A stretch of DNA of 64,000 nt, from contig JBHGNT010000005.1 of NCBI GenBank assembly GCA_043228905.1, positions 20,646,001 through 20,710,000 on the forward strand, in the 5' to 3' direction. Below the pieces are notes generated by a model. The model ran no database searches and was not told where the DNA came from. It was given only the letters and a program-made list of their open reading frames with translations. Each line of letters opens with the position of its first letter. Positions within the stretch are counted from its first letter, which is position 1. Positions 259 to 57,879 of the stretch are shown one piece after another. This stretch comes from Azolla caroliniana (lineage: Eukaryota > Plantae > Polypodiophyta). The translations under genes were made by a program, and so were the position numbers.

Positions 259-623
259 TGTTGACCGGTCAGAAGAGCAAGGACAAGTGGGAAGGCGGAG
301 TCGGATCGGATAATAGGAAGTAAATAATAGTATAATTATTATTTGGAGGGACGGATCCAGACCGATTCGGATGCCGGTTGCCTAAGCGCACCGATTGTAA
401 CCTTGCCGGATGCCTATAAAAGGATCCGATGATTTGTAAAGTCTTTACGAAAGTAATACAGAAGTAATTATTGCGTGTTTATCTGTATCTTTGTATTGTT
501 TTACCGTCTGTGCTTAATTGTAATCATCTTACGCGTGTAACCTAGCATCCAATCCTTACCATCCCTTTGGAGAAGTGTCGGATAGACACTTGTGTTGAGG
601 CTAGTCCGGCCAGGCAGACAACA
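259..623 (+). repeat. Gypsy-1 5' LTR (365 bp)
   Basis: TGTTGACCGG...GACAACA. Matches 11182-11555 with about 6 substitutions and one 9-bp indel. TATA-like CCTATAAAA at about 413. Confidence 0.95.
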
Positions 624-629
624 CTATTT

Positions 630-642
630 TGGCGACCACGAT
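630..642 (+). promoter_or_regulatory. Gypsy-1 primer-binding site (tRNA-Arg-like, apparently truncated)
   Basis: TGGCGACCACGAT just after the LTR. A longer version, TGGCGACCACGATGGGA, occurs at 8354-8370. Confidence 0.7.
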
Positions 643-1078
643 TCCTGCAAAGTGCAGAGGACCACATCATCGAACGAGGGAGACGATACACCGAACGAGA
701 GCAACGACGGGAAGCCCTACAGCAAGCCGTCGACGAGATCCGGCGAGATCGGTCATTCTCCAGAACTCTTCGGAGAGTCGCAGAAGAAGCACTGCAGTTC
801 CGGGTTCTGCAAGTCCCCGACGAAGGCAGTAGCATAACAAGCCTGCAAGAGGTGGAAATGATACTACAGACGCTCGCCGGGTCGACGGGGACTCGGAAGC
901 ATTCGCAACACTTGAGGCGGAGTCGGAAAGCGACGGAAGCGTTGCATCCCGGTATAAAAGCAGCCACAACACACCAAACGACCCGGGGGAAGAGGGGTCG
1001 GAAGACTCAGTAACACCGGAGCCAGAGGAAGAAATAACCTTGGAGTTCGGTGACCGGCAATCGCCGAGGGAGGCTGAC

Positions 1079-1290
1079 CGGATACCGACAACACCCGCGA
1101 AGGAACCGGAGGAGCGGATACCGACAACACCCGCGAAGGAACCGAAGGAGCGGATACCGACAACACCCACGAAGGAACCGAAGGAGCAGATACCGACAAC
1201 ACCCGCGGAGGAACCAAAGGACCGGACACCGGCAACACCCGCGGAGGAACTGAAGGAGCGGATACCGGCACGAACCGCAGAGGAACCAAA
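1079..1290 (+). repeat. 36-bp tandem repeat in gag (about 6 copies; IPTTPAKEPEER)
   Basis: Unit GATACCGACAACACCCGCGAAGGAACCGGAGGAGCG repeated, degenerating towards the 3' end. Confidence 0.9.
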
Positions 1291-4200
1291 GGTTCTCACA
1301 CCAACAGCGGAGAAAGCAGGAGAGTCAGTTGGACGACACGATGCCGTACCCATACCCAAAGTACCGGGATGAGCCAAACGCTGAGGCACACGTGTACGCA
1401 TTCCTCCAAACATGGGAAGCCAACCATGTCTCCCAAAGACTGACGGAGCCCGAAGGCGAACGATCCAAAGTCACCGAATTTGGCATGACCTTAGAAGGAC
1501 CGGCGGCCCGATGGCACGCAAAGCACTTACCGGGCAGCTTTGCCACATTCGATGCCTTGAAGGCCAAATTCCTCAGGCTTTTTCACAGACAAGTTGAGCA
1601 AAGGGAATTGGTCGGGCAGTTCTACACCACCCGGCAGGAAGAGAACGAGACTGTGCCACAATTCATCATTCGGTTTCAGACCCTGCACAACCAACTAACG
1701 AGAGCACCACCCGAAGACGAAGCCAAAGCAGTCTTTTTGGCCGCGCTGAAAGAGCCACTTCGAACAATGTGCGGAGTCCTTGATTTCCGCACCAGCACAA
1801 TGGACCAAGTTATTGATCGGGTCTTAGAAATGGACAAGACTAGCTCCTTCTTGTCGATGGGGATGTTACACCGGCCACTCCCGAAGGAGGAAGACCTGAG
1901 GTTCCGACAGGCCTTATAATGCACAACATGCCTAAATTCAGGCCACTCAATGGTAGACTGCACCCTGCAGACACAATGTATGATCTGCAACTCTCGAGCC
2001 CATACAACGGACCGATGCGAATATAACTTGTTAAATCGGCAGGCAGCACCGGTTCGACACATAGAACCACGCAATCAGAACCCGGATGAGGATCGATTCC
2101 GGAGAGACGACCGCTACCAACGCGAACGCGGTAACAGATACGCTGATAGAAGACGCGATAACTATGACCGAGAGGAGAAACGCAGAGATAGCTACCCCCG
2201 GGACCGGTACGACCGAGACGAATCCCCGGAATACGAACGACGCAGAGAAGAGAGGCGACAAGGGAACCGAAATTTCCGACGAAATCAGAAGCGAGGATTT
2301 TTCCGAAGAGAGGAACGTCGGGAGGCGAGCAAGGAATGACAACCCGGTATCGGTACCGGATAACCGAAAAACCGAAGACGACCGCCGAAGTATACCCACC
2401 CTCCAAACCGGGGACAAAGGAGAAACGAGCAACAGTCACAAGGTGTACTGTTATTACTGCCGTAAGGAGGGCCATTATAGTAACCAATGCCCAAGCAAAA
2501 CCAATGACAAGCAGCCGGCAGTCAACATGGTTACAGCCGAAATAACAGAAGTACAGCAGGTCAAAACCCGGTCAAAGGGAAAGACCGCCGAATGGGAAGC
2601 CCAGGAGGCAATCAGAAAACAAGCGGCGCAATGGATCAAGGAGGCCAATGAACAGAATGCGGCAGAAGTAAGAGACCAAAATATGCCAAAAGACGAAGAA
2701 ATCATACAACCAGGAGACAACCCGACGTGGCAAGCGCTACAGGACTGTCAAGTCGTGCTGCTGTTAGCACGGCTACTACAGTTGGTGCCACGGTTTACGG
2801 CAGACTTACAGGCATCCGTGAGCAAACCGATGCCAGCACCGGCATTCTTCTCCAACCCGGAGGAAGGACCAACTGTGGTCAATACGAGTAGCCCGGCAAT
2901 CACGGCAATCGTAAAAGGAAAGGAAATTGCTGGAACGATTATTGACGGAGGCTCCGGGGTAAATGTCATCAGCCGACAGACATGCAACAACCTGGGCATC
3001 CAGGAATGGGAACCATGCCCCTTCTGGTTACGCATGGCGGATACCAGCTCAGTCCGACCGACCGGGCTTATTCGGGATTTGGAAGTAACAATCAGAGGCG
3101 ACGTATTTCGGATATCGGCCGTGGTGCTGCAGCTGAATGTACAAGGCGCGTACCCCCTACTGCTAGGACGACCATGGCTGCGAACGGCGCATATCAAGCA
3201 GAACTGGCAAAAGAACATGATCACATTCCGGCGAGGGAAAACAAAGGTACGAGTAACGACGCAACCACGGGTGATCACCAGTAAGGAAGCAACTCCATTG
3301 TATGTGGAAAGCATCAACATGTTGGAGGGATTACCGAACGAGGAAGTCAATCGGTACCTCGAGGAACACCCACGAATCGTCCCACTATTTGAGGTGGATA
3401 TCACGGCGGCAGTAGAACCGTACATCACGACGCCGGACGAACCGGACCAAGCGGCGATCCGGGAATTGCGACAAGCGCAGGAATCCCTAGAGAGGGAAAT
3501 GACGATATCCCAGAGGGTAAAAGCATCCCAACTAGAGGAGGTGGACCTCGGCACAACAGACAAGCCCCGACCGGTAAATGTCGCAAAGGAATTGCCGAAG
3601 GAAGAAAAGAAGGCAATGGTAGCATTATTAACAGACTTCAAGGATGTGTTCGCGTGGTCGTACGAAGACATGCGAGGGTTGGACCCCCAGCTCTATCAGC
3701 ACCAAATTCACCTAAGTACGAACGCGAAACCGATCGCTCAACGCAGGTACCGGATGAATCCGAATTATGCGGCGAACGTGAAGGAGGAAATTGATAAGCT
3801 CCTCCGGGTCGGATTTATCCGACCGGTCAAGCAGGCAACCTGGCTGAGTCCGATAATGGTGGTCCCGAAAAAGAACGGAAAAATCTGGGTATGCGTGGAC
3901 TACCGGAAACTAAATGCCGCAACAGTGACCGATGCGTTTCCACTACCATTTACGGACGGGGTGTTAGATGCGGTAGCCGGCCACGAAGTTTACAGCTTCC
4001 TGGATGGATTTAGCGGTTACAACCAAATACGAATGAACTCGGCCGACCAGGAGAAGACAACGTTCGTTACGGAATGGTGAGTGTTCGTCGCGGTCGTGAT
4101 GATGTTCGGACTAAAGACGGCCCCAACGACCTTTCAAAGGATAATAATGGAAATTTTCGGGGAATATATCCCCGGTTTTATGCAGGTCTTCCTTGACGAT

Positions 4201-6384
4201 TTCGCGGTCTACAGCCGACACGGAGAGCATCTCGATCACCTCCGGCTGTGCTTGGAGAAGTGCCACGAGTACCGGTTGAGTCTGAACCCGGCCAAGTGCG
4301 TCTTTGGAGTGGCAAGCGGCAACTTACTAGGGCACGTGGTGAGTAAGGAAGGAATCGCGGTAGATCCGGATAAAGTAAAGGCGATTCTTGAGGCACCGGC
4401 ACCAAATAACGCAAAGGCTTTAAGCCGGTTCCTGGGCCAAATAAGGTGGCATAGCCGGATGATACGGCACCTCGCAGACTTCGCTACACCATTGCATACC
4501 GCCGTACACAGGGTACCCTTCCTATGGGCGGAGACGGAGGAGGAAGCCTACCAAGCGTTGAAGGTTATGCTGTCGCAAGCTCCGGTGGTGCAACCGCCGG
4601 ATTGGAGTAAAAGCTTTCACGTCTTCATCGACGCGTCGGACGTAGCAATCGGCAGCGTTCTGATGCAACTCACGGAGCCGAAATGGTACCGACCGGTGTA
4701 CTACGCAAGCCGGAAACTCTCAAAAGCCGAACGGAACTACTCTACGACGGAACGCGAGGCATTAGGAATGGTGTATAGTGTCACAAAGTACAGGCACTAT
4801 CTGCTCGGAAGGAAGTTTTCCTTCCATGTCGACCATTCGGCACTACTCTACCTGGTCTCGAAGGCATCCCTGACGGGAAAAATTGCACGATGGACACTGC
4901 TGTTACAGGAATTTGAATTCGACATTTTCCACCGACCCGGGGCGCAGCATGCGGTAGCGGACTACCTAAGCAGACTCGAATCCGGAGAAGCAGGGGACGG
5001 CGTCCAGGATGAGTTCCCCGACGCCGAGTTGTTCCGGATCACGACGAAACCGGCAACGGATGCAACGGTAGCCGATGAAGACACGTGGCTAACTGAGATG
5101 CATCAGTTCCTGAGCACCGGAGTACCCCCGGAGAACATGGACCGCGATGAAAGGAAAAGAGTAGCAGTAAGAAGCAGACATTTCTGCTTGGTTGGAGACA
5201 CCCTCTATCACAAGGGGGCAGATGGCATCTGGAGACGAGCAGTGCGGAGCGATGAGAAGGATCTAATCCTCAGGGAAGCCCACTGTGGAATTGTCGGCGG
5301 GCATTATGCCGTCGACGCAACCGCTCGGAAAATATGGCAGAGCGGACTGTGGTGGCCCACCACCCTAAAAGATGTCGTGAAGTATAGCAGAGAATGCGAT
5401 TTGTGTCAACGACTGGGCCAACCCACGGAGCAGGCCCGGATGCCACACCACCCGGTCTTGCCATTGGAACCGTTTCAAAAGTGGGGTTTGGACTTTGTCG
5501 GTCCCTTCAAGCCACCGGCAATGCGAACCGGAAATCGGTATGTCATATTGGCGACCGACTATTGCACCAAATGGGTAGAAGCGAAGGCCTTACGGGACAA
5601 CACGGCCGCGTCCACGGCAAAGTTCCTATATGAGTGCATATGGTGCCGGTATGGATGCCCGATCGAGCTTATAAGTGACCAAGGAGGACACTTTCTCGGG
5701 CAGGTAGTAGAAAGCCTGACGTCATTTTACGCGGTGGTACATAAAAGGAGTACTCCCTACTACCCTCAAGCCAATGGACTAGCGGAATCGACGAACAAAA
5801 CTCTGCAGAACATCCTACGAAAAATCGTCAACGAGAACCAGACCGACTGGGATACGAAATTGCAAAGCGCGCTATGGGCGTACCGAACAACGTACAAAAC
5901 CAGCATCCGGACAACCCCGTTCCGACTAGCATTCGGTTTAGAAGCGGTCATGCCGGTAGAGTTCCAGATCCCCAGCTTACGGATCCAGGTAAAGGAGCGC
6001 TTAAGTGAGGCGGAGTCCGAACGAATCCGGCTGGCGACGTTGTTGGAATTAGAAGAAAACTGAATCGCCAGCTTACTACAACTCGAACTAGAGCAAAGGA
6101 GGAGAAAAGCTTTCCTGGACCGACACCGGCGTGGCAACGAAAAGGAGTTCGAAGTCGGGAAACCGGTGCTACTGTTCCAGACACGGATGGGGAACATGCC
6201 GGGAAAGTTGCGGTTTCGGTGGACCGGACCATTCTGGATCACCAAGGAGTACAATGAGTCGTATCAGCTCGGCACGTTGTCTGGAGAAGTCATCGGTAAG
6301 TGGGCAAATGGGTTTCGGCTAAAGCCGTATAAGGGAAATATGCCAGCCAACCCGTTCAAGCAAAACCCGGAAATCCGGCACGAT

Positions 6385-6492
6385 GAGGAACCGACACCGA
6401 CAGACGCTACTGCAGATATCCGGACGGAGGAAGAACCGACACCGACAGACGCTGCTGCAGATATCCGTACCGAGGAAGAACTGACACCGATA
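6385..6492 (+). repeat. 45-bp tandem repeat at the integrase C-terminus (about 2.4 copies; EEPTPTDATADIRTE)
   Basis: Direct repeat visible in the DNA and in the translation of ORF 6166-6579. Confidence 0.85.
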
Positions 6493-8017
6493 CTGACAAA
6501 GATTATCCCGGAAAACCGACAGAAGGATCTAGTATCAGCGCGAACCGACCCGAACAAATCAGGGGGGACCAGAAAATGACGTAGTCCAAACAAACAAAAA
6601 ACAAAAAAAATAAAAATAAAAATAAAAATCATAGTAATGATGGGGAGATCACAAGAGGTGGGAGCGCCACCATGCAACGAAGAGGCGCCATGCAGGAAAC
6701 GAGGACGTGCGCGTACTTGCTATTTAAAGCATAGAACGTGGGCACCAACGTACGAGGTATTACTCACACGCGGCAAGCAAGAAAGGACATACTAATTATG
6801 GCGGGAGACAAACATGCGCGGGAAACGAAAAAGGGCGGCTCGAGGCAAAAGCCACTATATAAGACACAGGCCTGCGAAGGACTTACTTTTTACGAATTTT
6901 CCTACACACAGGCGCAAAAGCACAGAAGAGCGATCCGACGCACAACGCACACACATCCAGAGCCCGAACAACAGACAGCAAAAGAAGAATTCGAACCAAT
7001 GGCACTGTCGGAAGAGGCACGCCAATGGATGATGGAGAACAGGTTAGAAGTATTGCTGCGGAACGCCGACGCTCCACCACACGCAGAACCAGAACAGGCG
7101 GCAGCATTGATTGATTTATCAGAAATCACGGAAGGAGCGGTGCATGCGCTCACAGGGATAAAAGCAGGAGGACTTCAAATGATCGAAAACCCTTCAAGTG
7201 AAATCCTGTTCAAATATTTCGGTGAGTATTCCATCAGCAGCAAGGCGTACCGAACACAGGGCGGAGAGAACCTGCTGTTCGGAGAAGTGCCCCGCGCCAT
7301 GATGGAATACGGATTCGTGAATTCGCATCCCCCGGCCATAGCCAAGTACCGGGTAGCGTTCCTAATTGCAACGTACGAAGGATTACAAGTGGACTGGCTC
7401 CATTTCATAACCGAAGGATTGAAGGAAGCCATGAAGAACCTTGTGGAAGGAAAAAAGCGATGGGCCGGGATAGCACAATGGCTAACGGTGTTAGTCCCAC
7501 CGGTGCTCCCCATCAAACAAAAGAAAAGAGGTCGGCAGGAGACGACGCCGAAAAAGGTCACAAAGCGCCGACATATCCTGGAGAAACACACCCCCGGATG
7601 GACCCAGGAAGAAGCAGAACTGCGGGAGGAAGGACCATCCCGACAGCAACAGGAACCAGCAACAAAGGCAAAACTGGCTGGAAAAGGCAAAGGAAAATCG
7701 GCCAATGAGGAACCGGTAACGCTCAAACCAATCAATATAACGCTGCGACGGCCGGAACCGGAACCAGAGGTCTTTATACAAAAGGTCCGTCTGGTAGCCG
7801 CACCGGAGGAGGAAGCTGAAGCAGAAGACTCATCCGAACCACTGGTAAGACTCCCATCAAGACAAGGTCAGGAGAGACGGGCGAGAGGACCGGCTCCACC
7901 AATTGACAAAACTCAGCAGAGGGCGCAAGGACCACCTCCAGTAGCCGGGGCGGAAGCAGTACCGGAACCCGTACCAAGGGAAGCAGTACCGACACCGGTT
8001 TTGCCGGACTTCAGAGA

Positions 8018-8116
8018 ACCGGTCGGTACCATTTCGGCTCCGTGAGTTGCATCAAAACGCTGCCGATTGCTACGTCCGACGCGTCGACGAAGACGTGAAA
8101 GCTTTTACTCAAATCC
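8018..8116 (-). other. Inverted copy of the element's own RNase H segment (4599-4697)
   Basis: Reverse complement of 4599-4697 with about 3 mismatches. Confidence 0.9.
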
Positions 8117-8347
8117 AATTGTAACCTTGCCGGAATCCTATAAAAGGATCCGATGATTTGTAAAGGCTTTACGGAAGTAATACAGAAGTAATTATTGCGT
8201 GTTTATCTGTATCTTTGTATTGTTTTACCGTCTGTGCTTAATTGTAATCATCTTACGCCTGTAACCTAGCATCCAATCCTTACCATCCCTTTGGAGAAGT
8301 GTCGGATAGACACTTGTGTTGAGGCTAGTCCGGCCAGGCAGACAACA
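8115..8347 (+). repeat. Internal partial third LTR of Gypsy-1, followed by a PBS (8354-8370)
   Basis: Matches 391-623 of the 5' LTR and ends GACAACA-CTATTTTGGCGACCACGATGGGA. Confidence 0.92.
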
Positions 8348-8366
8348 CTATTTTGGCGACCACGAT

Positions 8367-9236
8367 GGGATAAAAGCAGGAGGACTTCAAATGATCGAAA
8401 ACCCTTCAAGTGAAATCCTGTTCAAATATTTCGGTGAGTATTCCATCAGTAGCAAGGCGTACCGAACACAGGGTGGAGAGAACCTGCTGTTCGGAGAAGT
8501 GCCCCGCGCCATGATGGAATACGGATTTGTGAATTCGTGTCCCCTGGCCATAGCCAGGTACCGGGCAGCGTTCCTAATTGCAACGTACGAAGGATTACAA
8601 GTGGACTGGCTCCATTTCATAACCGAAGGATTGAAGGAGGCCATGAAGAACCTTGTGGAAGGAAAAAAGCGATGGGCCGGGATAGCACAATGGCTAACGG
8701 TGTTAGTCCCACCGGTGCTCCCCATCAAACAAAAGAAAAGAGGTCAGCAGGAGACGACGCCGAAAAAGGTCACAAAGCGCCGACATATCCTGGAGAAACA
8801 CACCCCCGGATGGACCCAGGAAGAAGCAGAACTGCGGGAGGAAGGACCATCCCGACAGCAACAGGAACTAGCAACAAAGGCAAAACCGGCAGGAAAAGGC
8901 AAAGGAAAATCGGCCGATGAGGAACCGGTAACGCTCAAACCAATCAATATAACGCTGCGACGGCCGGAACCGGAACCAGAGGTCTTTATACAAAAGGTCT
9001 GTCTGGTAGCCGCACCGGAGGAGGAAGCTGAAGCAGAAGACTCATCCGAACCACTGGTAAGACTCCCATCAAGACAAGGTCAGGAGAGACGGGCGAGAGG
9101 ACCGGCTCCACCAATTGACAAAACTCAGCAGAGGGCGCAAGGACCACCTCCAGTAGCCGGGGCGGAAGCAGTACCGGAACCCGTACCAAGGGAAGCAGTA
9201 CCGACACCGGTTTTGCCGGACTTCAGAGAACCGGTC
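8367..9236 (+). repeat. ~870-bp direct duplication of ORF3 segment 7155-8024
   Basis: Near-identical sequence with scattered substitutions, mostly transitions. Confidence 0.92.
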
Positions 9237-11181
9237 ATTCCAGAGAAGAGGAATGAACAAGCGTCGGAGCTAGAGAAAAGGCCGGAAAAGCAGCCTGAGT
9301 TAAGGAGTAGAAGTGAGCAATGTTACTCCGACACAGGAAGCACAAGGCCACAATGGCTGAGATGGCTTTCGGAGCAGGTATCGGGACTAGCGGACCAGTT
9401 AGAGGAAGAAGAAACGTGTAGGCAACACCTGACACATACAACAACCCAGGAGTTGGTCGCGCTCCGAACACAGATCCAGGAATTGCAAGGGGAGCTGTTG
9501 CAGGCAAGGGAAGGAATTCAACAAGCACAAGTTGTCACCGAGCCGGTCAGGACAACAAGGAAGCAACCAGAACCGGAACCGGAACCGGCAGCCTTGCAAA
9601 CCGGCCCTGAGACCGAAAAAATAATAGAAACCTTCCGAGAGGAGTTAAAAGCTCAAGAGGCATTAAGGGAAAAAGAAAGGGAGCAGCGGAAAGCGGTGGA
9701 GGACGACAGACAGAAAATGGAAGAAGGCCTCCGGAAAGGCCGAGCCACTAATGACCGACTGCAAGAAGAAAAAGAGAAGCTGCAAAAGGAGAAGGACCGA
9801 CTGCGTCGACAGCCGAGCAGGAGATAGAACGACTGCATGAAGAACTCCGACAACAGAAGGACCGGGACGACCGGTTAAGAGCTCAGGTAAACCGACACCT
9901 GAAGCAGAAGACGGAGAACTTCGACCGACTCTACCGAGATCACAAGCAGGCCGAGTCGGACAACAAGAAACGGGCAGCAGACTACGACCGGCAAATAGAG
10001 AAGCTGAAAGAACAACTCAAAGAGACCCGATTAGACCTGGCTAAGACAATGGAAGAGGTCAGTGCCAAAAAGGAAGCATTGTCGGCGGAAATAACCCAAG
10101 CGACGGAGAGAAGGAAGGAATTAGAGGCGCTAAGGCGGGAAAAGCTAGATCTGACCAAGATCAGGAATGAAGAAAAGGAAAGATCGACCTTCACGATCAA
10201 CAAACTGCAAAGTACCTATGAAAAGCAGAAAGCGGATTACGAAGCCCAGGCTCAGATAATGGCCGACATTATAAAACGGGCAAGGAAGGAAAAGCAAGAA
10301 GCTTATGCGCATGTTAAGGCGGGGGTTGACCGGATCAAGCTCATCATGTCAGGTTGGAGTACCCAAGCTCAGGCAAGCATCAACGAAAGTACGGAAAAGC
10401 TATGGAAGGAGTGGTCACAACAGGCAACCGAGCTGCAGACACTCCGAGCTGATGCCGAGAATCGGAGGAAGACCAGTGACAAGTTCTACAAGATGGATGA
10501 AGAAAGTATCGTCGCCATTCAGGAAGAATTATCGGAGGATTTCTACGCTTTAGCGGAAGAACATCTCAAAGAAATCCGAGGGTTGGTAGAGAGGTTGGAT
10601 GACGGGCAGCTCGCAACTTAGTTGGAGTTGGAGAAATACGAGCAGGACCGGTTAAGACAGGAAGCCAAGGGAAGAACGACGCCAATCACTATAAGTGAGG
10701 GAGAGCGACCGGCGGAAGCTGAACCAACCGACACCGAACAACCCCGACAAGGAATACCCGAAGAAGAACTTCCGTTCCAAGAAAATCAAGAAGAGCAGGT
10801 GCAGACCGATGCTGGAGAAGAAGAAGAGCTGAGACCGGAAGACACCGGAGCAGAGGAAGAAGGCGCACCGAACCGACCAGTCGAGACCGGAGAAAGCGAC
10901 ACTGGTAACAGAACAGAGCCTGGAACGGAGGGAGAACAGGAAGAACCCGGACGGAGCGGTGAGGAAGCACCGGCACCACAAAATCAAGCACAGCCGAAGC
11001 AGCAAATTTTTATGGAACAGCCAACCCAACTAGAGGTCGGAGACCAGGCAGGCAAGGAATAGGAATTGGAGGAAGAAGCACCACTTGATACCTTCGAGCA
11101 GGGTGTGCTCGATATTTTGGAGGAAGAATGAGGCCGGGAGTGGATTCGAAGTGCAAGGCACTTTCCCACGGGCGTGCCATG

Positions 11182-11555
11182 TGTTGACCGGTCAGAAGAG
11201 CAAGGACAAGTGGGAAGGCGGAGTCGGATCGGATAATAGGAAGTAAATAATAGTATAATTATTATTCGGAGGGACGGATCCGGTACAGTTGTACCGATTC
11301 GGATGCCGGTTGCCTAAGCGCACCGATTGTAACCTTGCTGGATGCCTATAAAAGGATCCGATGATTTGTAAAGGCTTTACGGAAGTAATACAGAAGTAAT
11401 TATTGCGTGTTTATCTGTATCTTTGTATTGTTTTACCGTCTGTGCTTAATTGTAATCATCTTACGCGTGTAACCTAGCATCCAATCCTTACCATCCCTTT
11501 GGAGAAGTGTCGGATAGACACCTGTGTTGAGGCTAGTCCGGCCAGGTAGACAACA
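11182..11555 (+). repeat. Gypsy-1 3' LTR (374 bp)
   Basis: Direct repeat of 259-623, followed by TSD ACATC. Confidence 0.95.
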
Positions 11556-11560
11556 ACATC

Positions 11561-12104: not shown

Positions 12105-12263
12105 ACATCTTTCTCTTTCTCTCTCCCCCTTAACGTTGAACCCCCTTGGGAGGGGGATGGAGCCATTCTAGGCACCACCCCCCACCCCGTAATGCTTCTC
12201 AATGCTTGTCAACATCTTCATCATCTCTCTCACCATCGTATCGTTCATCATCTTCATTATTAT

Positions 12264-12732
12264 TGTTGTCTGCCGGAATAGTAACCGACAGACAAGAGCG
12301 CAGTAATATGGAATAGAGTAATATTGTAACTCATGTATATGGTTCACACGGGAAGCGTGAACGGCTAAAAGACCCTGCGTATATAAAGGGTAGAAAACCT
12401 CTAATAGAGGTAGCGTGTAATTTTGAATGTAAAAGGCGTATCTTAATAGAGTTCTATCTTCTCTGATATCTGTGCGTATCTGTGGTTAATCTACTGTGTG
12501 TCTGTAATCCTTGGTGGCGTAGCACACTCGTAAGAGCGTAGGCGTGAGTAACAGTGTGTGTGCTAGCCCACTGTCTACGGAGCTCGGTTGTAACCGTCTC
12601 CCTTATACGTTGCTAGGTTACGGGAGGTATCCCACTAAGTATTACGCACAGACGCTACCATTCGTTGTCACACAGTCACTTTGAGGTCTAGGTCGAAGGA
12701 CTGACCGTAGACCGTGTTCCTAATCGGTAACA
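12264..12732 (+). repeat. Gypsy-2 5' LTR
   Basis: TGTTGTC...GGTAACA, repeated at 25376-25844. Confidence 0.93.
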
Positions 12733-12754
12733 CTTTTGGCACGCTTGGTGATCT

Positions 12755-15700
12755 ATGTCTTCTCAAAGACGAACAACAACGAATGGATGTTTAGCCGCAG
12801 ACGCCCCAGAGAACCAACACGACAAGATTGACCAATCACAAGATCCATCACACGCCAGGCAGAGGAACACGCACGGCAGAAGCCTCGCCTCAGTGACCTC
12901 AGTGATACCTGTCGGGACCACAAAGACGATTTCTCGCTCTCCAAATACCTCGGCGATACGCAGGAAGCGCTCTCACCACAAAAGCACCATGGCCTTTCCT
13001 TGCCCGCCGTAGCACCCAGCATGGCCTTTGCTTATCCCCGCTTCAACGGTGAAACCGACGCCGCAACCCACATCCGATTGTTCCTCAATGTCTGGAATGC
13101 AAACCACATGCTGTAGAGCCTTTCCGGAGCAGTAGCACACCAGTCCAAAATGACGGAGTTCAGATTAACCTTGGATGGGAGAGTGGCGTTTTGGCATTCG
13201 CAGATGGATCTGCCAGCAATCACGACCTTCGACCAACTACAATCAGCCTTTCTACGGTTTTTTCATCGGAGGGTGCCGCAACGCGAAATCCTCGGGCAGT
13301 TTTACACAATTAAACAGTTGTCGACCGAGACGGTAGCCGATTTCAATTTACGATTCCAAAATCTACGACAGAAATTAGAACGGGGCCCAACGGAGGACGA
13401 GGCTAGGGAGACATTTTTGGCAGCATTACGCCGACCCATATGGACAACACTCAACAACAATAGCCTAAAAGGGGAAACGGCCGATATGGTCATAGAAAGA
13501 GCGCTACAGCTCGACCTGGACGAAGAACAGGAAAGGTTTTCCATGTCCTCATTACGACAAGCGTTACCTCAGGACGAGAAACGACATTTTCGCCAAGCGA
13601 TCCAGTTCACTATTTGCTTGAATTTGGGGCCATCCATAGTTGAATGCAACATGCGAATCCATTGTCCAATCTGTCACTCGAAAGCTCATACAGTTGAGCA
13701 GTGCGAGTACAATATGTTGAACAGACCCACAGTACACAGCGTGGAAACACAACGTCCCCCACGTCGTAATGAACAAAGGAGGCAAGAAGCACGACCACGG
13801 TATATGGATCGAAACCCAGGCGATGACCGGCACTACCTGAATTGTCGGAATCACAACGATTCCGAGGAAGACGAGCCGGAGGATGACGACTACTGTGGCA
13901 ACCCCAAAAATACTAAAGGGGGCCGACGCTATGAGAATTACCGTCCGACAAACAAACGTGGCAGCTTCAATGGGCCTCGTGGAAAGCATCGTCAATATCG
14001 GGACCAACGGCGGTACGATGAAAGTTCGGACGATGACCGGCACCAGGAACCACGCCGGGACCAACAACAACCACCGCGTACACTCCGACGAACGAATCAG
14101 GATTGGGAGGAGCAAGTCACACCTGGGGATCGGCACACACCACTAGGGGTCGAGAAGGGCAAATCTAGCCTCCATTGTTTTGTTTGTCAACAGCCCGGAC
14201 ATTATGCCACACAATGCCTAGTATGCAAGGGCAAGGGGCCCGCCATCAATACGATTACGGCGGAAGTACAGCAAGTCACGACACATCAGCAAACAAAAAA
14301 TGTTGATTGGGCCACGCAAGATGAGATACGGTGGACAACCCAAGCATGGGTTGAAAAAGCAAACCCTGCAAATACGGAGCGCATGCGGAAGGAGTCTGCA
14401 AGCACGATGGAGCTATTGGAGGAAGAGGGACCATCTCCGGACCCCATATGGCAAGCACTGACAGGCTCGAGATAACGTTAACCATGGAGAAGCTGCTGCA
14501 ACTAGTCCCACGATTCCGCCAGGCCGTGGAAGAGCGGATCACGGGGACACCTAGAGTAAGCGTCACCGCGAATTTTACGGACATTAGCGACAAACCGACA
14601 GTGGTGGATCACCACAACCCAGCTTTTTAGTTGATACTACACGGTCAGGAAATCCGAGGATGCGTAATCGATGGCGGCTCGGGCGTTAATGTAATTAGCG
14701 CGAAAACATGCGAACAATTGGGAATTTCAGAATGGGAAGCTTGCTCGTTTTGGCTTCACATGGCGGATGCCCGCTCAGTACGACCATTTGGGTTGATACG
14801 CAAGGTAGGCATTATCGTAGGAGGACATCGCTTCGACATCTCGACGGTAGTCATCGCCCTTGACGCTCTAGGGGCGTATCCTATGTTGTTGGGTAGACCG
14901 TGGCTTCGTTCAACGAATATCAAGCTGAGCTGGCAACACAAGTGTATCAGCTTTCGACGCGGACGCACCAAGGTTCGCGTACCAACAAAGGAAATGGCGA
15001 CACAACCCAAGGGCATAACACCATTGTACGCGGAGGATATAAATATGCTGGTTGGGGTGGATGATACAAAATTAGAGGTATACCTACTATATTTGGTAGA
15101 GAAACAAGCGCTGACGAGGAAATTGGCGAGATGGATGTGCTACTTCAAGAATTCGACTTTGTAATTCAGCACCGCCCGGGTACGCAACACGTAGTGGCAG
15201 ATTTTTTTAACAGACTCGATAATGGAGAAACGACGTAGAAGGATGACGAAGACTTTCCGGATGCAGACATTCTGCGGGTAGCAACGCTAGCAGAACGAAC
15301 GGAAAAGACCTTCCGGGATCAGTGCCTCATGGAAATGACCTACTTCCTGACCACGGGGTTATTGCCACCCCAATTACAAACGGATGTGGAAAAAACAGTT
15401 GGCCGTCCGGAGTCGAAATTTCTGTTTAGTGGAATACATACTATACCACAAGGGCAGTGACGGCATCTGGAGGCGCGGAATACGGCAGGATGAGAAGGCC
15501 GCAATTCTACACGAAGCTCATTGTGGTACAGTGGGAGGACATTACGCAGGCGATGTTACGGCCCGGAAAATTTGGCAAACAGGACTTTGGTGGGCGACGA
15601 CGCAAAAGGACGCGTATGAATATTTCAAACCGTGCGATTTATGCCAACGACTGGGCCAGCCCACAGAAGTTGCAAGAATGCCACACCAACCAGTGTTGCC

Positions 15701-16554
15701 ACTAGATTCTTTCCAAAAGTGGGGGTTAGATTTTGTGGGACCTTTTACCCCGGCGGCCGTTCGAACAGGCAATAAGTACATCTTGGTGGCTACGGATTAC
15801 TGCACCAACTGGGTAGAAGTGAAACCACTATGCGAGAATACTGCAGCAGTCACGGCGAAATTCTTGTGAGAACACATTTGGTGTCATTTTGGCTACCCTA
15901 TCGAGCTCATTAGTGACCAAGGGAGTCACTTTCTGAATACAGTCATCAGCAAACTGACCCAACATTACGCAGTGGTGCACAAGAAAAGTACGTTGTATTA
16001 CCCGCAGGCAAATGGCTTGGCAGAATCCATGAACAAAACCATCCAAACTATCCTCAAAAAGATAGTCAATGAGAATAGGACGGATTGGGACACCAAGTTG
16101 CATAGCGCGTTATGGGCATACCGTACCAGCTATAAGAGTAGCATACAATCAAATACCCAGTCTACAGATTCAAATACGAGCCCGGCTACCAAAGGGCAAA
16201 TCCGAACAAATACGGCTACAGCAACTGCTAGAGCTAGGAGAAACAACGGTACACAGTATGGCCATATTAGAGCAGGAACAGCGGCGGCACAAAGCATTCG
16301 TTGACCGACACCGGCATGCGCGTGAAAAAGATTTTACAGTTGGAAAAGCGGTATTAGTTTTCCAAACACGCATGGGGCATATGCCAGGAAAATTAAGATT
16401 CCGCAGGACAGGCCCTTACTGGATAGTAGGAGCAGAACAAGGCACATTTCAACTGGGTACGCTGGCCGGGGATGTGTTACGACAAAAAGTGAATGGGTTT
16501 CGCCTTAAACCTTATCAAGGACCTACGCCACCTAGCCCGTTCCCCGCCGAATAG
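12755..16554 (+). pseudogene. gag-pol: Gypsy-2 gag-PR-(RT/RH deleted)-INT
   Basis: Gag with three knuckles (13150-14475) and protease VIDGGSGVN. At about 15083 the sequence jumps LEVYL|LYLVEKQALTRKLARW to the end of RNase H. Integrase motifs WGLDFVGP and PQANGLAE follow. Confidence 0.9.
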
Positions 16555-17291
16555 GACAAAGCCGGAGAATCCGCGGAGTAAGTAGACGACCCCACTTGTA
16601 TTATAGTGTAAAAATAGTATTGTATGTAACTGTTATGAAAAAAAAAAAAACAAGATAGTGACGTTATTAAAAGGACTTAAGGCATGCACAAACTTTTAGA
16701 CCAAGAACATGCGGCACCATGATGGCTCACCGACCAATGAACCCTAGGCCACAAAAAGAAGGAAATAGAAGGTTTTCTGCACAATACAAAAATCAATCTT
16801 CTAACTCTCAGCGCTCTCATCGCTCCCCTTCCTTGCCCTCTTCTCCATCCTATCACAGAGCTCGAGCCCGCCGCAACCAACAGTCTTCACCCGCTAGCCA
16901 CTAGCCTATTCCGACTATGCTAATATCCATCTCTACCGCCTTGCGTCGATGGCTCATTGAGAAACACTTGGATGGGTACATCAAGGTCACTGAGGCACCT
17001 CCACACCCTGACGCACTGGACATCGCTAGAAAGCTCAACATCGACACGGTCACCAACTCATCCATTTGGAAAAAGTTGGACCTGTCATCACTGGATGAAA
17101 GGCATTTCGAAATCCCTCCTGCGGAATCCCTACAGAGATATTTCGGTCCATATTCGTCATCCGCCAAGGCATATAGAACGAAGGAGATCCCAGATCCCTT
17201 TTTCCGCGAAATCGCCAAGTTCCTGTTTGAGGTCGGATGCGTACATGTAAACGCATATGGGATGCCCAAGTAGACCTTTGAAGGGCGTACA

Positions 17292-18148
17292 TGTCGAGAA
17301 CTCAACGTTCCTTATGCGCAACGCTCTTCCACAACCGAGCTTAGAATGATACACAGAAGACGGGAAATAAAACGCGACACAAAGAAGAGAAAAAGGTACA
17401 CAGGAGGTTTACGTGGAAAACCCCAAACTAGGGGAAAAACCACGGCAGCCCACAGGCTGCAAACTGTCACTATGTAAGAATGTACAACAGTGAGTTCACT
17501 GAGGCAACGACGTCGTGCTCACAAATCTTCGCTACATGCGACAGTTACAACAGAGGCAACAACCTCTTTCTCTCTCTCTCTCTCTCTGTACAATTACGCA
17601 CACTGATCTCGTGCAAAACAGAAAATGACAAAAACCTACTAAAAGTTTGCCCTAAGTCATATTTATACTAATATGACTTTTCGGCTATTTAAAAATATAG
17701 CCTCGATGAACTCTCAGAAAACATATTTACAAATATGTCTCTTCATCCGGTTCATACCAGGTCTGTGCCATCCGGCTCTCCGTAGCTGGGTACTCCTCAT
17801 CCGGTCTTCATCGGGTCTGTATCATCTGGCTCTCCGTAGCCGGGTACTCCTCATCCGGTCTTCACCGGGTCTGTATCATCCGGCTCTCCGTAGCCGGGTA
17901 CTCCTCATCCGGTCTTCACCGGGTCTGTATCATCCGGCTCTCCGTAGTCGGGTACTCCTCATCCGGTCTTCACCGGGTCTGTATCATCCGGCTCTCCGTG
18001 GCCGGGTACTCCTCATCTAGTCTTCACCGGGTCTGTATCATCCGGCTCTCCGTAGCCGGGTCCTCCTCATACGGTTTCGGCCTCGGCCGAGTTTGTTCAT
18101 CGGCACTGTTATTCTCCCTTCCCATCCGGAGGGACCTGTCTCCCAACA
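17292..18148 (-). repeat. Copia-A 3' LTR (857 bp; six 54-bp units)
   Basis: Direct repeat of 22235-23040, with a tandem array at about 17769-18070. Confidence 0.93.
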
Positions 18149-18158
18149 AACTCCCTCT

Positions 18159-21100
18159 TCACTCCGGCATGGGGTGTCTTACCAGTCTGATTCTCTTCCG
18201 GCATGCATCCAGCTTGTCGGGTATCAACACTTTGGTCAGCATATCTGACCCGTTCTCGGCCGTGTGGATCTTCATCAGCGCGAACTCCTGGTCATCTACT
18301 CTTTCCCGGATCCAGTGGTACCTCCGCTGGATATGTTTCGTCTGGGAATGGTAGGCCGCATTCTTAGCAAGGTGGATGGCACTTTGACTGTCGCAATAGA
18401 GTCGGTATTCATCTTGTCGGATACCGAGCTCTCCGATGAAGTCCTTCATCCATAATATTTCCTTGCCAGCTTCCACAGCTGCCATGTACTCCGCCTCTGT
18501 GGTTGACAATGCAACCGTCTTCTACAGCCTCGACTGCCACGAAACAGCTCCCCCTGCATATGTCATCACATACCCGGATGTAGACCGGCTGGTATCCACA
18601 TCAGCCGACATGTCCGAATCGGTGAAACCGTCCAGTTGAGGTTTTCCGGAGCCGAATCGGAGACACATATTTGAAGTGCCCTTCAAATACCGGAGTATCC
18701 ATTTGACCGCGTTCCAGTGCTCCTTGCCGGGATTACTCATGAACCGGCTCACCACTCCAACTGCGTATCCTATATCCAGTCGAGTACAAACCATTGCGTA
18801 CATCAAGCTCCCGACGGCAGAGGCATATGGAATCTTCATCATATCCGCCTTCTCTGCTTTCGTCTTCGGGCTTTGCTTGCCGGATAGCCTGCAGTTTGCC
18901 GGAAGTGTCGATCCGACCGGTTTCGCTTCTGACATGTTGAACCGGTGAAGCACCTTTGTCACATACTTCTCCTGTGACAGCCATAATTGCTTCGTTGACC
19001 GGTTCCGGATGATGTGCATCCCCAACATCTGTCTTGCCGGACCCAAGTCTTTCATTGAGAATGTCCGGTTGAGAGCCTTCTTCAGCATCCGTATTTTGAC
19101 TTGGTCACGTCCAACGATCAACATGTCATCCACATACAGAAGGAGTATTAGGAAGTCACCTCCTTCGAAATTCTTCACAAACACACAGTGATCGTCCTGT
19201 GTCTTGTGGTACCCTTGATTGGTCATGAAGTAATCGAACTTCCGGTACCATTGCCGGGGAGCCTGCTTCAGTCCGTACAGGCTCTTCTTCAACCGGCATA
19301 CCAGGTGCTCCTTCCCTTTCTCCACGAATCCTTCCGGTTGCTGCATGTAGATCTCCTCTTCGAGGTCACCGTGAAGGAATGTCGTCTTCACGTCCAGCTG
19401 CTCTACCTCGAGGTCCATGCTTGCTGCTATACTCAGCACCGTCCGGATGGAGGTCATCTTTACTACCGGGGCAAATATCTCGTCGAAGTCCACGCCCTTC
19501 TTTTGCTGGAACCCCTTCACCACGATCCTAGCTTTGTATCTTAGGGGGTTGCCGGCATCTCCCGGTTTCAACTTGTACACCCACTTGTTTCGGAGTGCCC
19601 GCTTTCCTTTCGGCAACTCCACCAATTCGTACGTATGGTTCTCATGCAGGGAATCCATCTCATCCTGCATGGCACTTAACCATTTTCGGTTGTGGGTGTC
19701 TTCCTCCGCTTCTTCGAAGCTTTCGGGCTCCCCCTCATCGGTCAGCAGAACATGCTCTGCATCCGGAAATCTCCGGGGGGCCCTTCTCTCTCTGAGAGGA
19801 TATCTCCATCTCTGGGCTTCGGTGACCGGCTCATCCATCTGCTCTTCATCCGAATCCGATTCAGGGTCTTGGCCAGTTCCGGTTTCAGCTTCCTCTACTT
19901 CTTCTTCAGCCCGTTCGGTATCCTCACCGTAACCGTCCGGTCTCTCGAGTGCTAACCGGTCTCTTGCCGGTTGGGGCTGCTCATCGTAGAGTCAATCCTT
20001 ACCGGTCGACTCGGAGTTCATTATCTTCTTCTCCGACTCCCAGTCGGCGAGCGGCTTGTTCTCCATGAAGATAATATCTCGACTCCGGAATACCTTCTTG
20101 TCGACCGGGTCCCACACTCGGTAGCCGAACTCATCGTCACCGTAACCGAGGAATATGCATGGCTGAGTCTTTGGATCTAACTTTCCTCTCCGGTCCTTAG
20201 CTACATGCACGTACACGAGACACCCGAATACCTTCAGATGCCGGTAGGATACTTCCTTACCGGTCCACACTCTCTGTGGCGTGTCTCCGTCCAAGGGTAC
20301 TGAGGGTGATCTTTTTATCACATATGTCGCCGTCGACAATGCCTCAGTCCAAAACTTCTTGGATAGTTTTGCATGCGCTAGCATACTCCGGACCCTCTCC
20401 ATTATGGTCCGGTTCATCCTCTCGGCCAGTTTGTTTAGTTCCGACGTCTTCGGCACGGTAAATTCGAGCCGGATTCCCTTCGAGCAGCAGTACTCCTCGA
20501 ACTGCCCCCGGTATTCTCCTCCGTTATCTGCTCGAACTGCCTTCAGCATCCGACCGGTTTCTCTTTCCAGTCTCGCGTGGAGCTCTTTGAAGACGGATAG
20601 CACCTGATCCTTCGTCTTCAGCGGTGTAGCCCACAGCTTCCGGCTGTGGTCATCTATGAATGTCACGAAGTACTACGCTCCGGCATGTGACTTCGTGTCT
20701 ACTTGACACACATCGGTATGCACCAACCCCAGTGGTGCATTACGTCTCATCGGTGGCCTTGGTTGGAAGGAGGTCTGGTTTTGCTTACCGGCCAGACAAT
20801 CAGTGCACTTCTCCAAGTGCACGTTCTTCACTGGAATGAGGTTGTCTTCTGCAAGCCTCTTCATCCCCTTCTCGCTCATGTGACACAGCCTCTTGTGCCA
20901 TAGCTCACCGGCAGTGTCGGATGCCACGTTCACTTCCTCCGGACATAACCGGGCATTCATCAGGTACAAAGTGTTGACTTTCCAGGCCCGAGCCACAATC
21001 AGGCTCCCTTTGCTGAACTTCATGACACCGTTCCGGATGCTACCCGTGTAGCCCTCATCATCTAGCCGACCGGCTGATATCAGGTTCAGTCGAACCTCTG

Positions 21101-22184
21101 GAACGTGTCGTACATCCTTCAGCAGCAACTTGCATCCGGTTGGTGTCGACAGCCACACGTCTCCTATGCCGACAATTCGGCATGTCCCTTCATTCCCCAT
21201 CCGGACACAGCCGTGATCAACGGTTGAGTAGGATGAGAAGCATTTCCGGTCCGGGGTAAGGTGGAACGACGCTCCGGAGTCTACCACCCAGGTCATCTCG
21301 TCGCCGGCAAGGTTTATCTCACTCTCCTCGGTGATGACCATCAACTCCTCTTCACTTGCCGCGATTGCCGTCGTTCCCTTCCGGTCCGGCCCCCTCCGGT
21401 CTTTACCGTTCCGGTCCGGGGTCTGCTTCGAATCGGTACCGTCGGTCTCCTTATCTTTTCGGAACTGCCGATAGTTCTTTTGGAAGTGTCCCGGCTTGCC
21501 GCAATAGAAGCAAGTAGGCCTCCCCCTTGACTTTGACCGTGTCCCCAACTTCTCCCGGTTCTGGGGACTACGGTTTCTATGTCTTCCGCGTTCCGATTCG
21601 GTAAGGAGCGCTTTGGAGTCGGAGCTCGTATCCTTATCTTTCTGACGCGCCTCTTCATCTAGCAAGCTCGACTTTACTCTTGCTAGGGATAACCGCTTTC
21701 CTTCTGGCCCGGCATTGCCCAAAGTGACAACCAACGTCTCCCAGCTATCCGGGAGGGAACCGAGCAGGAGCAGCGCTAGTACCTCATCGACGAGAGGTAC
21801 TTCCAATGAAGTTGCCTGGTGGATCAGCCCCTGGAAGGCATTCATGTGCTCCGCCATGTTGGAGCCATCTTGGTATCGGAGTCTTACTAGCTTCCGGAAT
21901 ACCGACACCTGATTGACAGCATTTTTGTTCTGAAACATTATGCCGATCTTCTCCCAGAGCTCATGAGCCTTGCTCTCTTCATTGAAGTTGTTGTATAGGC
22001 TCATGTCGATGAAGCACCGTATGTACGCCGTTGTCTTCATATGCATCACCTCCCATATTGCGGCGTCGATTTTGTCCGGTCTCTTGTCCCCGAACTGAAC
22101 CGGCAGCCAGAGGTCTTTAACCACGAGCATGTCCCTCATCTTCGACTTCCACACTGAATAGTTGGAGCCGGTGAGCTTGAACAT
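18159..22184 (-). pseudogene. gag-pol: Copia-A gag-PR-INT-RT-RH polyprotein (stops and frameshift)
   Basis: Motifs CFYCGKPGH, WVVDSGASFH, LWHKRLCH, RADNGGEY, YVDDML, FTDSDM, KHIQRRYHWIRE. Confidence 0.95.
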
Positions 22185-22234
22185 GCCGCCAAACGATTTG
22201 TCCCTTTTCTGTGACGTTTCGCTCTGATACCACT

Positions 22235-23040
22235 TGTCGAGAACTCAACGTTCCTTATGCGCAACGCTCGGCCACAACCAAGCTTAGAATGATACACAGA
22301 AGACGGGAAATAAAACGCGACACAAAGAAGAGAAAAAGGTACACAGGAGGTTTACGTGGAAAACCCCAAACTAGGGGAAAAACCACGGCAACCCACAGGC
22401 TGCAAACTGTCACTATGTAAGAATGTACAACAGTGAGTTCACTGAGGCAACGACCTCGGGCTCACAGATCTTAGCTACAGGCGACAGTTACAACAGAGGC
22501 AACAACCTCTTTCTCTCTCTCTCTCTCTCTTTATATAGTTACGCACACTGATCTCGTGCAAAACAGAAAATGACAACAACCTACTAAAAGTTTGCCCTAA
22601 GTCATATTTATACTAATATGACTTTTCGACTATTTACAAATATAGCCTCGATGAACTCTCAGAAAACATATTTACAAATATGTCTCTTCATCCGGTTCAT
22701 ACCGGGTCTGCGCCATCCGGCTCTCCGTAGCCGGGTACTCCTCATCCGGTCTTCACCGGGTCTGTATCATCCGGCTCTCCGTAGCCGGGTACTCCTCATA
22801 TGTCTCTTCACCGGGTCTGTATCATCCGGCTCTCCGTAGCCGAGTACTCCTCATCCGGTCTTCACCGGGTCTGTATCATCCGGCTCTCCGTGGCCAGGTA
22901 CTCCTCATCCGGTCTTCACCGGGTCTGTATCATCCGGCTCTCCGTAGCCGGGTCCTCCTCATACGGTTTCGGCCTCGACCGAGTTTGTTCATCGGCACTG
23001 TTATTCTCCCTTCCCATCCGGAGGGACTTGTCTCCCAACA
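22235..23040 (-). repeat. Copia-A 5' LTR (806 bp; five 54-bp units)
   Basis: Adjacent to the PBS. One repeat unit fewer than the 3' LTR. Confidence 0.93.
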
Positions 23041-25375: not shown

Positions 25376-25844
25376 TGTTGTCCGTCGGAATAGTAACCAA
25401 CGGACAAGAGCGCAGTAATATGGAATAGAGTAATATTGTAACGCATGTAAACGGTTCACGCGGGAAGCATGAACGGCTAAAAGACCCTGCATATATAAAG
25501 GCCAAAAAACCTCTGATAGAGGTAGCGTGTAATTTTGAATGTAAAAGGCGTATCTTAATAGAGTTCTATCTTCTCTGATATATGTGCGTATCTGTGGTTA
25601 ATCTATTGTGTGTCTGTAATCCTTGGTGGCGTAGCACAGTCGTAAGAGCGTAGGCATGAGTAACAGTGTGTGTGCTAGCCCACTATCTACGGAGCTCGGT
25701 TGTAGTCGTCTCCCCTATACGCTGCTAGGTTACGGGAGGTATCCCACTAAGTATTACGCACGGACGCTACCATTCGTTGTCACACAATCACTTTGAGGTC
25801 TAGGTCGAAGGACTGGCCGTAGACCGTGTTCCTAATCGGTAACA
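25376..25844 (+). repeat. Gypsy-2 3' LTR
   Basis: Direct repeat of 12264-12732. Confidence 0.93.
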
Positions 25845-45365: not shown

Positions 45366-45449
45366 GTTAGTATATAACCAATCTTTGTAACCAATTTCTA
45401 ATTGTTGGTTCTTTTTTAATAATACAAGTTGTTTTTGTGTGCCTTGAAG

Positions 45450-48245: not shown

Positions 48246-48456
48246 AATTTGGGAATGGATGCTTTCATATTCATTGAGATGTGCATGGACCAAATCAAAT
48301 TCATTAATCCGAAGATTATAGAGGCGTCGAATCAAATAGATCTTTGTGGCAACCACCTTCTTTTCGTATGTGTCCGACAACAACTTCCATGAGCTGAAAG
48401 CTCTTTTGCTGATGAGCAGTCTCCCCCCTTCATGGAAAACATTTGTCACGATTGTT
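48243..48456. pseudogene. Rearranged Copia gag fragment (Copia-B-like), half on each strand
   Basis: Minus strand 48390-48243 reads WKLLSDTYEKKVVATKIYLIRRLYNL. Plus strand 48391-48456 reads ELKALLLMSSLPPSWKTFVT. Confidence 0.75.
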
Positions 48457-49097
48457 CTTCCCGTGTTCTATCATGTAGAGGTTCATGCATGAGTTCTATC
48501 ATGTTCAGCTCAATACACAAAGGAATACCTTCATGGAGGAGGCCTACATGACAAACACTAATGAGTGTTGCACCAAGCAACACTAGTCATTCCACTAATT
48601 GATCCTTTGTCAACTTCTCCTCAATTGGTTCACGTTGTTACCAATCCTTCTTTTGAGCCTATGATTCACACTAGAAGAACCTCTCCCCCTTCCTATTGCC
48701 ATTACCATTTTACGGCGACCACTCAAAAATGGGGGAAACTTCATGTTCCCAAATATACTTAAATTTCCAACTAAGTAATTGTATTGATATTATGAAATGC
48801 ACATAGAGAGGATCCAAACTAGTCTGTCTTTCCCGTTCCTTCTTGCTTAATTTATAATTTATATAGAGATACCTATTCGGGTAGATTTGTCTACCAACTA
48901 ATGCATGTTTACATGCATGAAGGCTTGCACTTGCTAAAAATGTGACAGTAAGGTACACCACAACATGAAGGCCTACACTTGATAAAAAGGTGGCACAAAG
49001 GTACACCACTATATTTAAACTAAATCCTAAAGCTCAAATTGCCCACCAAACTACAAAGCTTAAGAGGGCACACACACACATACACAAGACAATACAA

Positions 49098-57829: not shown

Positions 57830-57879
57830 CATTAGAGAACATTAGAGCTTCAGTCTAATCTCTCCTCCCATTCTTACTC

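Follow-up and report, generated by a model that had tools for sequence, protein, structure and literature searches.

In a 64-kb window of the Azolla caroliniana genome (the whole stretch analysed; positions 20,646,001–20,710,000 of JBHGNT010000005.1, a large contig of a 523-Mb genome), two Gypsy retrotransposons, elements 1 and 2, carry an extra open reading frame (ORF) that in five families of related elements lies on the sense strand, between pol and the 3′ long terminal repeat (LTR). This extra ORF is clearly under purifying selection, and its N-terminal domain (N-domain) is predicted to fold like part of VANC21, the accessory protein of the transposon VANDAL21. Leaning on this structure prediction, we propose, with a probability of about 0.5, that the extra ORF is the accessory gene of one Gypsy lineage and that its product would be a nuclear, self-oligomerising, DNA-binding regulator that acts as an anti-silencing factor or trans-activator.

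Searches of the same genome with five queries returned at least 150 matches each and ~4,200–4,600 first-look candidates, figures not to be taken as copy numbers; we analysed 80 loci, a non-random sample chosen for long open frames. The extra ORF was full-length in 8 of the 20 loci of a first set (962–980 aa) and in 18 of the 20 of a second (959–981 aa), and several of these frames adjoin an unbroken gag-pol frame of 1,950–1,987 codons. It measured ~810–820 aa in family 3 (LTR pairs 98.5–100% identical at nine of the ten loci) and reached 1,028 aa in family 4; family 2 is older, with no full-length frame among its best 150 matches. The size of ~1000 aa given by a first-pass annotation of the window is therefore that of intact copies elsewhere in the genome and not of the window copies, neither of which is the long open frame it had described, as they are interrupted by an insert, a duplicate, a copia element, stops and frameshifts. 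The homology it had seen between the two window proteins was borne out (N-terminal part, 29% identity over 108 aa, E 6e-20; helical C-terminal block, or C-block, 35% over 98 aa, E 6e-22), the motifs quoted from both are present where it had placed them, and the LTRs of the two elements, which it called largely unalignable, gave no blastn alignment. At one locus (L025) ~140 linker codons were lost in frame and the rest of the extra ORF was still open, and two others (L024, L017) kept a long extra-ORF frame with most of gag-pol missing from the stretch retrieved. Element 1 (Gypsy, LTRs 259–623 and 11182–11555) is laid out as follows.

259–623, plus strand: 5′ LTR; 5-bp target site duplication (TSD) ACATC at 254–258 and 11556–11560
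630–642, plus strand: primer-binding site (PBS), 13 nt complementary to host tRNA-Arg(UCG) plus CCA
643–6579, plus strand: gag, protease, reverse transcriptase (RT), RNase H and integrase; stops interrupt the frame
6586–6998, plus strand: spacer between pol and extra ORF, with an A-rich tract and TATA-like boxes at 6721 and 6856; candidate internal promoter
6999–7508, plus strand: extra ORF, N-domain (aa 1–170), predicted VANC21-like fold
7509–7574, plus strand: basic patch KQKKRGR...KKVTKRR, resembling a nuclear localisation signal (NLS) by inspection
7575–8045, plus strand: linker, first truncated copy; frame terminates at 8043–8045
8018–8371, no strand assigned: insert, comprising an inverted RNase H piece (8018–8116), a partial LTR (8115–8347), a spacer and an 18-nt tRNA primer copy
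8367–9236, plus strand: duplicate of 7155–8024, 98.3% identity
9237–11131, plus strand: remainder of the extra ORF, with coiled coil, helical C-block (~10300–10620) and acidic tail SVL/GVL-DIL-EEE
11140–11179, plus strand: copy of the tRNA-Arg(UCU) 3′ half with an inserted hairpin, its CCA end 2 nt before the 3′ LTR, in the place of the polypurine tract (PPT)
11182–11555, plus strand: 3′ LTR, 95.5% identity to the 5′ LTR

The span 6999–11131 (4.1 kb) is a 2.9-kb gene enlarged by insert and duplicate, and its other defects are a frameshift near 9755–9827, in the coiled coil, and stops at 10619 and 11059. Since the 18-nt primer copy ends in GGGAT, running on into the GGGAT at 7155, and the duplicate of 7155–8024 follows, insert and duplicate likely arose by an aberrant plus-strand transfer.

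Selection was estimated as pairwise dN/dS (NG86, column bootstrap) after removal of poorly aligned columns. Between subfamilies 1a and 1b (399 pairs), dN/dS was 0.12 (0.07–0.18) in the N-domain, 0.11 in the coiled coil and 0.07 in the C-block, with 0.36 in the linker and 0.45 in the tail; the corresponding gag-pol values were 0.14 (gag), 0.04 (RT) and 0.03 (integrase). When N-domain changes of this comparison were divided by type, shared changes gave 0.12–0.13 and private ones 0.41. Family 2 (20 loci) yielded 0.13 in the N-domain, 0.18 in a middle helical block, 0.17 in the C-block, 0.59 in the tail and 0.18 in an integrase piece, and the N-domain of families 3 and 4 gave 0.19 and 0.28, respectively. 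The intervals are optimistic because the pairs are non-independent, columns were filtered and dS is high between subfamilies. dN/dS was nonetheless well below 1 and not near it, which, together with the clade support described next, sustains the earlier idea that one lineage carries an accessory protein that is under selection and is not env. Synonymous divergence between 1a and 1b was ~0.6–1.6 in the extra ORF, mostly above the 0.45–0.95 of pol, possibly through recombination between subfamilies or a compositional effect.

RT-RNase H sequences of the five families formed one clade with two other database rows (SH-aLRT 99) in a quick tree of 77 rows, for which 120 database rows were reduced to those that were named or aligned over 340 aa, and one family-2 row was dropped for length. 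In this tree, built without labelled REXdb references, the clade fell among liverwort and fern rows, apart from Pinus and Asteraceae rows, and the nearest named RTs were those of liverworts and a fern. The elements are 9–10 kb long non-chromovirus Gypsy elements with an extra ORF of at least 250 codons; their pol has no chromodomain and the RT-type RNase H as its only RNase H, according to Pfam on pol pieces and a reading of intact gag-pol, and the Pfam matches of element 1 pol likewise included neither chromodomain nor extra RNase H. Among 1.84 billion representatives, a profile search found 351 matches at E≤0.001, of which the best 150 were mostly fragments, many of them 25–50% identical to families 1 and 2; ten that we inspected were unnamed or ‘hypothetical’ and stood on short contigs. 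One distant relative (P0134) had no match in the Azolla genome at E 1e-20 with the query used.

The predicted fold of the N-domain (aa 1–170) matches VANC21 residues ~306–534 with whole-domain coverage and 7–10% identity. The same VANC21 range was recovered from two models, the next chain scored 4.5 Z lower, and VANC21, a DNA-bound chromatin factor, was the only structural neighbour. Sequence searches did not recover this relationship: PDB sequence-profile searches gave no VANC21 match at E up to 10, Pfam returned nothing relevant for the window pieces or for alignments of 14 and 65 rows (none of PF10536, PF20167, PF03078 and PF04195 at E≤1), a DUF1985 Pfam match occurred in 0 of 65 members, and no full-length match to a characterised protein was obtained. 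PF20167 and PF10536 also found no matches in the Azolla genome, where the controls were equally silent, so that this says nothing. In the ESM Atlas, the N-domain showed feature similarities of 0.89 and 0.88 to Gypsy extra-ORF families (PMD/DUF1985/Transposase_32 group; Athila/Transposase_32 0.88–0.89), all leads below 0.9, and the C-block gave recognition 1256, which is uninformative. The N-domain thus probably belongs, as a remote member, to a known group of Gypsy extra-ORF domains, PMD/DUF1985/Transposase_32, and is therefore not unprecedented.

N-domain and C-block (W..QAAEL..LRAD..NRR..G..FYK) are common to all families, but the single architecture first described holds in part only: the middle helical block is conserved in families 2–4 only, where it drew generic helix matches at pLDDT 60–74, and in family 1 it was lost or altered past recognition. 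Families 1–4 share a hydrophobic-acidic C-terminal motif (SVLDILEEE, NIRAILEED, SIFDILNDSDEE, NILDILKEE). We rejected the idea that the ILEEE tail is conserved merely as a purine tract because families 3 and 4 keep the hydrophobic-acidic motif in a different DNA context.

From these parts the following mechanism can be pictured. A TATA promoter in the spacer would yield a subgenomic RNA for the extra ORF, and the basic patch would carry the protein into the nucleus. Oligomers would bind the element's own non-coding DNA via the predicted VANC/PMD-type N-domain, with the coiled coil, a predicted parallel homodimer, giving multivalent binding, and the C-block and acidic hydrophobic tail motif might recruit host transcription or chromatin factors. 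Silencing would be lifted, or the LTR activated, and the element would stay active. Anti-silencing was one of three roles suggested in the first-pass annotation, and it is the one that gains support from the VANC21 structural match. A TATA-like box was present in the spacer at 10 of 10 loci checked, and the initiator-like site 30 nt downstream of the box at 6856 is kept in both 1a and 1b although the spacer has diverged. An A-rich tract (up to ~60 A) directly follows the pol stop in families 1–3, 5′ of the TATA-like boxes (window 6586–6630 and 16636–16650; L064, L072). A test for cis motifs was mixed: CGGATC was over-represented in family 1 LTRs, no motif emerged in the LTRs of families 2–5, and control copia LTRs contained repeats too. 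An expression search retrieved 8 short partial pieces from one possibly-RNA run among three contig runs, which is evidence neither way.

The same fold and the same selection evidence would also suit an integration tether that would attach to host DNA or chromatin by its VANC/PMD-type domain, carry the integration complex on its coiled coil or C-block and so stand in for a chromodomain. The missing chromodomain in pol, the location of family-2 elements in transposable element clusters, as in the window, and the absence of clear cognate motif arrays in four of the five families all fit such a role. However, the TSDs of 11 elements, 5 bp long and variable, showed no sequence preference by eye, and we know of no member of the VANC/PMD fold group that targets integration, so that we consider a tether unlikely. 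Somewhat more doubtful is a particle or RNA accessory factor (a scaffold, an RNA export factor or a helper in loading a second tRNA) whose N-domain binds RNA. It would make use of the long coiled coil with its predicted self-association, and the extra ORF and a tRNA-type plus-strand site, described below, do occur together in 5 of 5 families; yet co-occurrence inside one clade is no proof of coupling, and both the basic NLS-like patch and a sole structural neighbour that is a DNA-bound chromatin factor speak against it. We give a similarly low probability to the VANC match being a chance likeness of helical domains in a functional gene of unrelated origin and mechanism, against which stand the whole-domain coverage, the agreement of two models on one VANC21 range, the gap of 4.5 Z and the language-model leads, obtained separately, to families of Gypsy extra ORFs. 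The position, the sense strand and the coiled coil would agree with an env-like membrane or fusion protein, but this is very improbable: no hydrophobic segment exceeded a 19-residue Kyte-Doolittle mean of 1.29 in 4 intact copies (maxima 0.87–1.29), in keeping with the earlier call of no transmembrane helix, there was no match in a viral structure library, and no signal peptide was evident from the hydropathy of these copies, no dedicated predictor being used.

Several known systems resemble the extra ORF or its elements in part. Like the extra ORF, VANC21 of VANDAL21 (PDB 9lnj/9lnk; PMC5735166) is a transposon-borne accessory gene with the N-domain fold predicted here, a self-association coiled coil and a fast-changing linker. 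It differs in coming from a Mutator-like DNA transposon rather than an LTR retrotransposon with gag-pol, in the size of the domain (~228 residues versus ~170 here) and in its cis repeats, found here in 1 of 5 families; VANC is moreover described as dicot-specific (PMC13547354). By prediction, the extra ORF works like VANC/PMD-type factors, but it is not a VANC member because the host element is wrong and there is no sequence match. PMD-A of angiosperm Gypsy elements, here taken together with host MAIN/MAIL1 (PF10536; PMC5418596, bioRxiv 2024.09.27.615353), is likewise a Gypsy extra ORF, and the structure of PMD is reported there to resemble that of the VANC DUF1985 domain; however, PF10536 has no match here, and PMD-A is reported from angiosperms whereas the nearest RTs here are from liverworts and a fern.

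The Athila 3′ ORF (PF03078, Transposase_32 PF20167; PMC6317226, PMC11728184) also follows pol on the sense strand, in non-chromovirus elements that have a 5-bp TSD and no extra RNase H. The extra ORF, however, has no match to its HMMs and no transmembrane helix, and is about double the length of the sunflower Athila example (487 aa); the RT-RNase H of the lineage lies apart from Pinus and Asteraceae rows, and its PBS is tRNA-Arg. Retand and Grande elements have an accessory gene between pol and the 3′ LTR, with coiled-coil matches, whose TRP28 product (PF04195) is a proposed DNA-binding regulator, in Grande with its own promoter and a nuclear product; it is antisense, however, and reported from flowering plants only, and PF04195 has no match here (PMC11963269). 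The Tat clade (TatI-III, Ogre, Retand) carries an extra, archaeal-type RNase H not found here. Phygy and Selgy are, like this lineage, non-chromovirus Gypsy elements of seed-free plants without extra RNase H, but their descriptions set them apart, as both are short and without extra ORFs, and Phygy has an NCGN target preference in contrast to the variable 5-bp TSDs here. No description of a VANC fold in a retrotransposon extra ORF was found in the literature searched; Tanaka et al. 2026 and Sasaki et al. 2022, outside that search, may already list retrotransposon homologues.

A second peculiarity of the lineage concerns plus-strand priming. No PPT adjoins the 3′ LTR in any of the five families, the last 20 nt containing 8–10 purines in all five representatives. 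Instead, 74 of 82 stretches (the 80 loci and the two window elements) have a 40-nt site whose CCA end lies two bases before the 3′ LTR; of the other eight, five end at or before the site and three fell outside the examination. The site matches host tRNA-Arg(UCU) over the 3′ half, except that it is one base short and has a small hairpin added behind the T-loop; the genes of this tRNA are without CCA. The hairpin stems vary in a compensatory way by eye (GTGC/GCAC, GGAC/GTCC, GTAC/GTAC). A search for an uninterrupted tRNA end followed by CCA, two bases and TGT gave 7 matches versus 0 in a reversed control. Two represent one family-3 event (LTR end, spacer, the exact last 18 nt of the mature tRNA, AG, sense LTR), three represent one family-5 event (~52 nt of tRNA, CCA, TG, sense LTR; one of the three continues into an Arg(UCG) PBS and gag), and two were not assigned to an event. 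Among 15 matches of a junction search were the family-3 pair, two further 18-nt junctions (1–2 mismatches) after an apparent LTR end of unidentified family, nine taken for internal sites, or for insertions into such sites, and two that were unclear; none of the 15 was a clear junction with the element's own hairpin version. The 18-nt length fits a stop of reverse transcriptase at m1A58.

Judging by these junctions, it is quite probable that a host tRNA annealed to minus-strand DNA serves as the plus-strand primer, although a template switch onto packaged tRNA could leave the same traces. That the pre-LTR site serves mainly to pair with the PBS of its own element is disfavoured because families 1 and 5 have an Arg(UCG) PBS yet keep the Arg(UCU)-type site. 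Examples of the 3′-half copy lie at window 11140–11181 and 25333–25375 and at L116, L111–L113, L121 and L131, with mature-tRNA sequence in left-LTR-end junctions. Read-through on the PBS side into the primer tRNA, by 18 to ~50 nt, was seen at L078:586–650, L099, L100, L102, L114, L119 and window 8354–8371; L114 has an A to T change at tRNA position 58 and L102 a palindromic LTR-end/tRNA junction. As in canonical PPT-primed LTR elements (PMC6317226, PMC10886601), the primer would end 2 nt before the TG of the LTR, but a tRNA-Arg(UCU) 3′-half copy takes the place of the PPT; in Helenus, the tRNA-like sequence lies within the LTR and a PPT is retained. The literature searched yielded no account of plus strands primed by tRNA, Helenus and Ajax being different.

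PMD, TRP28 and Athila domains are already familiar from Gypsy extra ORFs, with regulatory DNA binding proposed for TRP28 (PMC11963269), and PMC6317226 states that the function of most plant Gypsy extra ORFs is not known. What appears to be new is a family of ~800–1,000 aa, unrecognised by sequence, in a seed-free plant, which structure prediction links to a solved anti-silencing factor; for one large extra-ORF family, this link is a direct, testable hypothesis. The five families reside in one genome and have diverged proteins and LTRs that do not align, which makes them a natural specificity matrix (protein i versus LTR j). We tentatively put forward the possibility that the lineage makes a sequence-specific anti-silencing factor of its own, with a VANC fold, and that host tRNA-Arg primes the synthesis of both its DNA strands. 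If this were true, the VANC/PMD fold would predate flowering plants and its first carriers would have been Gypsy accessory genes, which would favour the view that VANC and host MAIN/MAIL proteins came from retrotransposons. A VANC-fold gene in a Gypsy element of a seed-free plant would bear on the origin of PMD, called fully open in PMC5418596, and on that of VANC, said in PMC13547354 to derive from host MAIN. If the plus strand is primed by tRNA, a nearly universal rule of how LTR elements replicate has an exception, and annotation that relies on the PPT would go wrong on these elements.

Element 2 and the copia element nested in it comprise the following features.

12264–12732, plus strand: 5′ LTR; PBS from 12737, tRNA-Arg(UCU)-like
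12737–16554, plus strand: gag, protease and integrase, decayed; RT and most of RNase H missing
16917–17291, plus strand: extra ORF, N-terminal part; stop at 17271
17292–23040, minus strand: nested copia splitting the extra ORF; TSD GTACA
23046–25328, plus strand: remainder of the extra ORF (N-domain end, middle block, coiled coil, C-block, tail); several stops and frameshifts
25333–25373, plus strand: tRNA 3′-half copy, CCA end 2 nt before the 3′ LTR
25376–25844, plus strand: 3′ LTR, 94.3% identity to the 5′ LTR

The LTR of the copia element (17739–18148 and 22684–23040) has a 54-bp tandem array inside. A G/C-run repeat, CCCCC...GGGGG-ATGGAGCC, recurrently adjoins insertions of the Gypsy lineage (window 12121–12190; L115, L121, L131) and is a possible preferred target. 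Elsewhere in the genome (L103–L106; G000:C2, ~12.0 Mb), a family-5 element is tandemly amplified, with five near-identical LTRs. The rest of the window holds more nested copia elements (26600–48400), with a LINE encoding endonuclease and RT at 45423–48392, a frame of 268 codons without a Pfam match (49064–49870), a 31/34-bp tandem repeat array (57875–58320) and, at 60326–63864, a host gene matching filament-like plant protein (FPP, PF05911).

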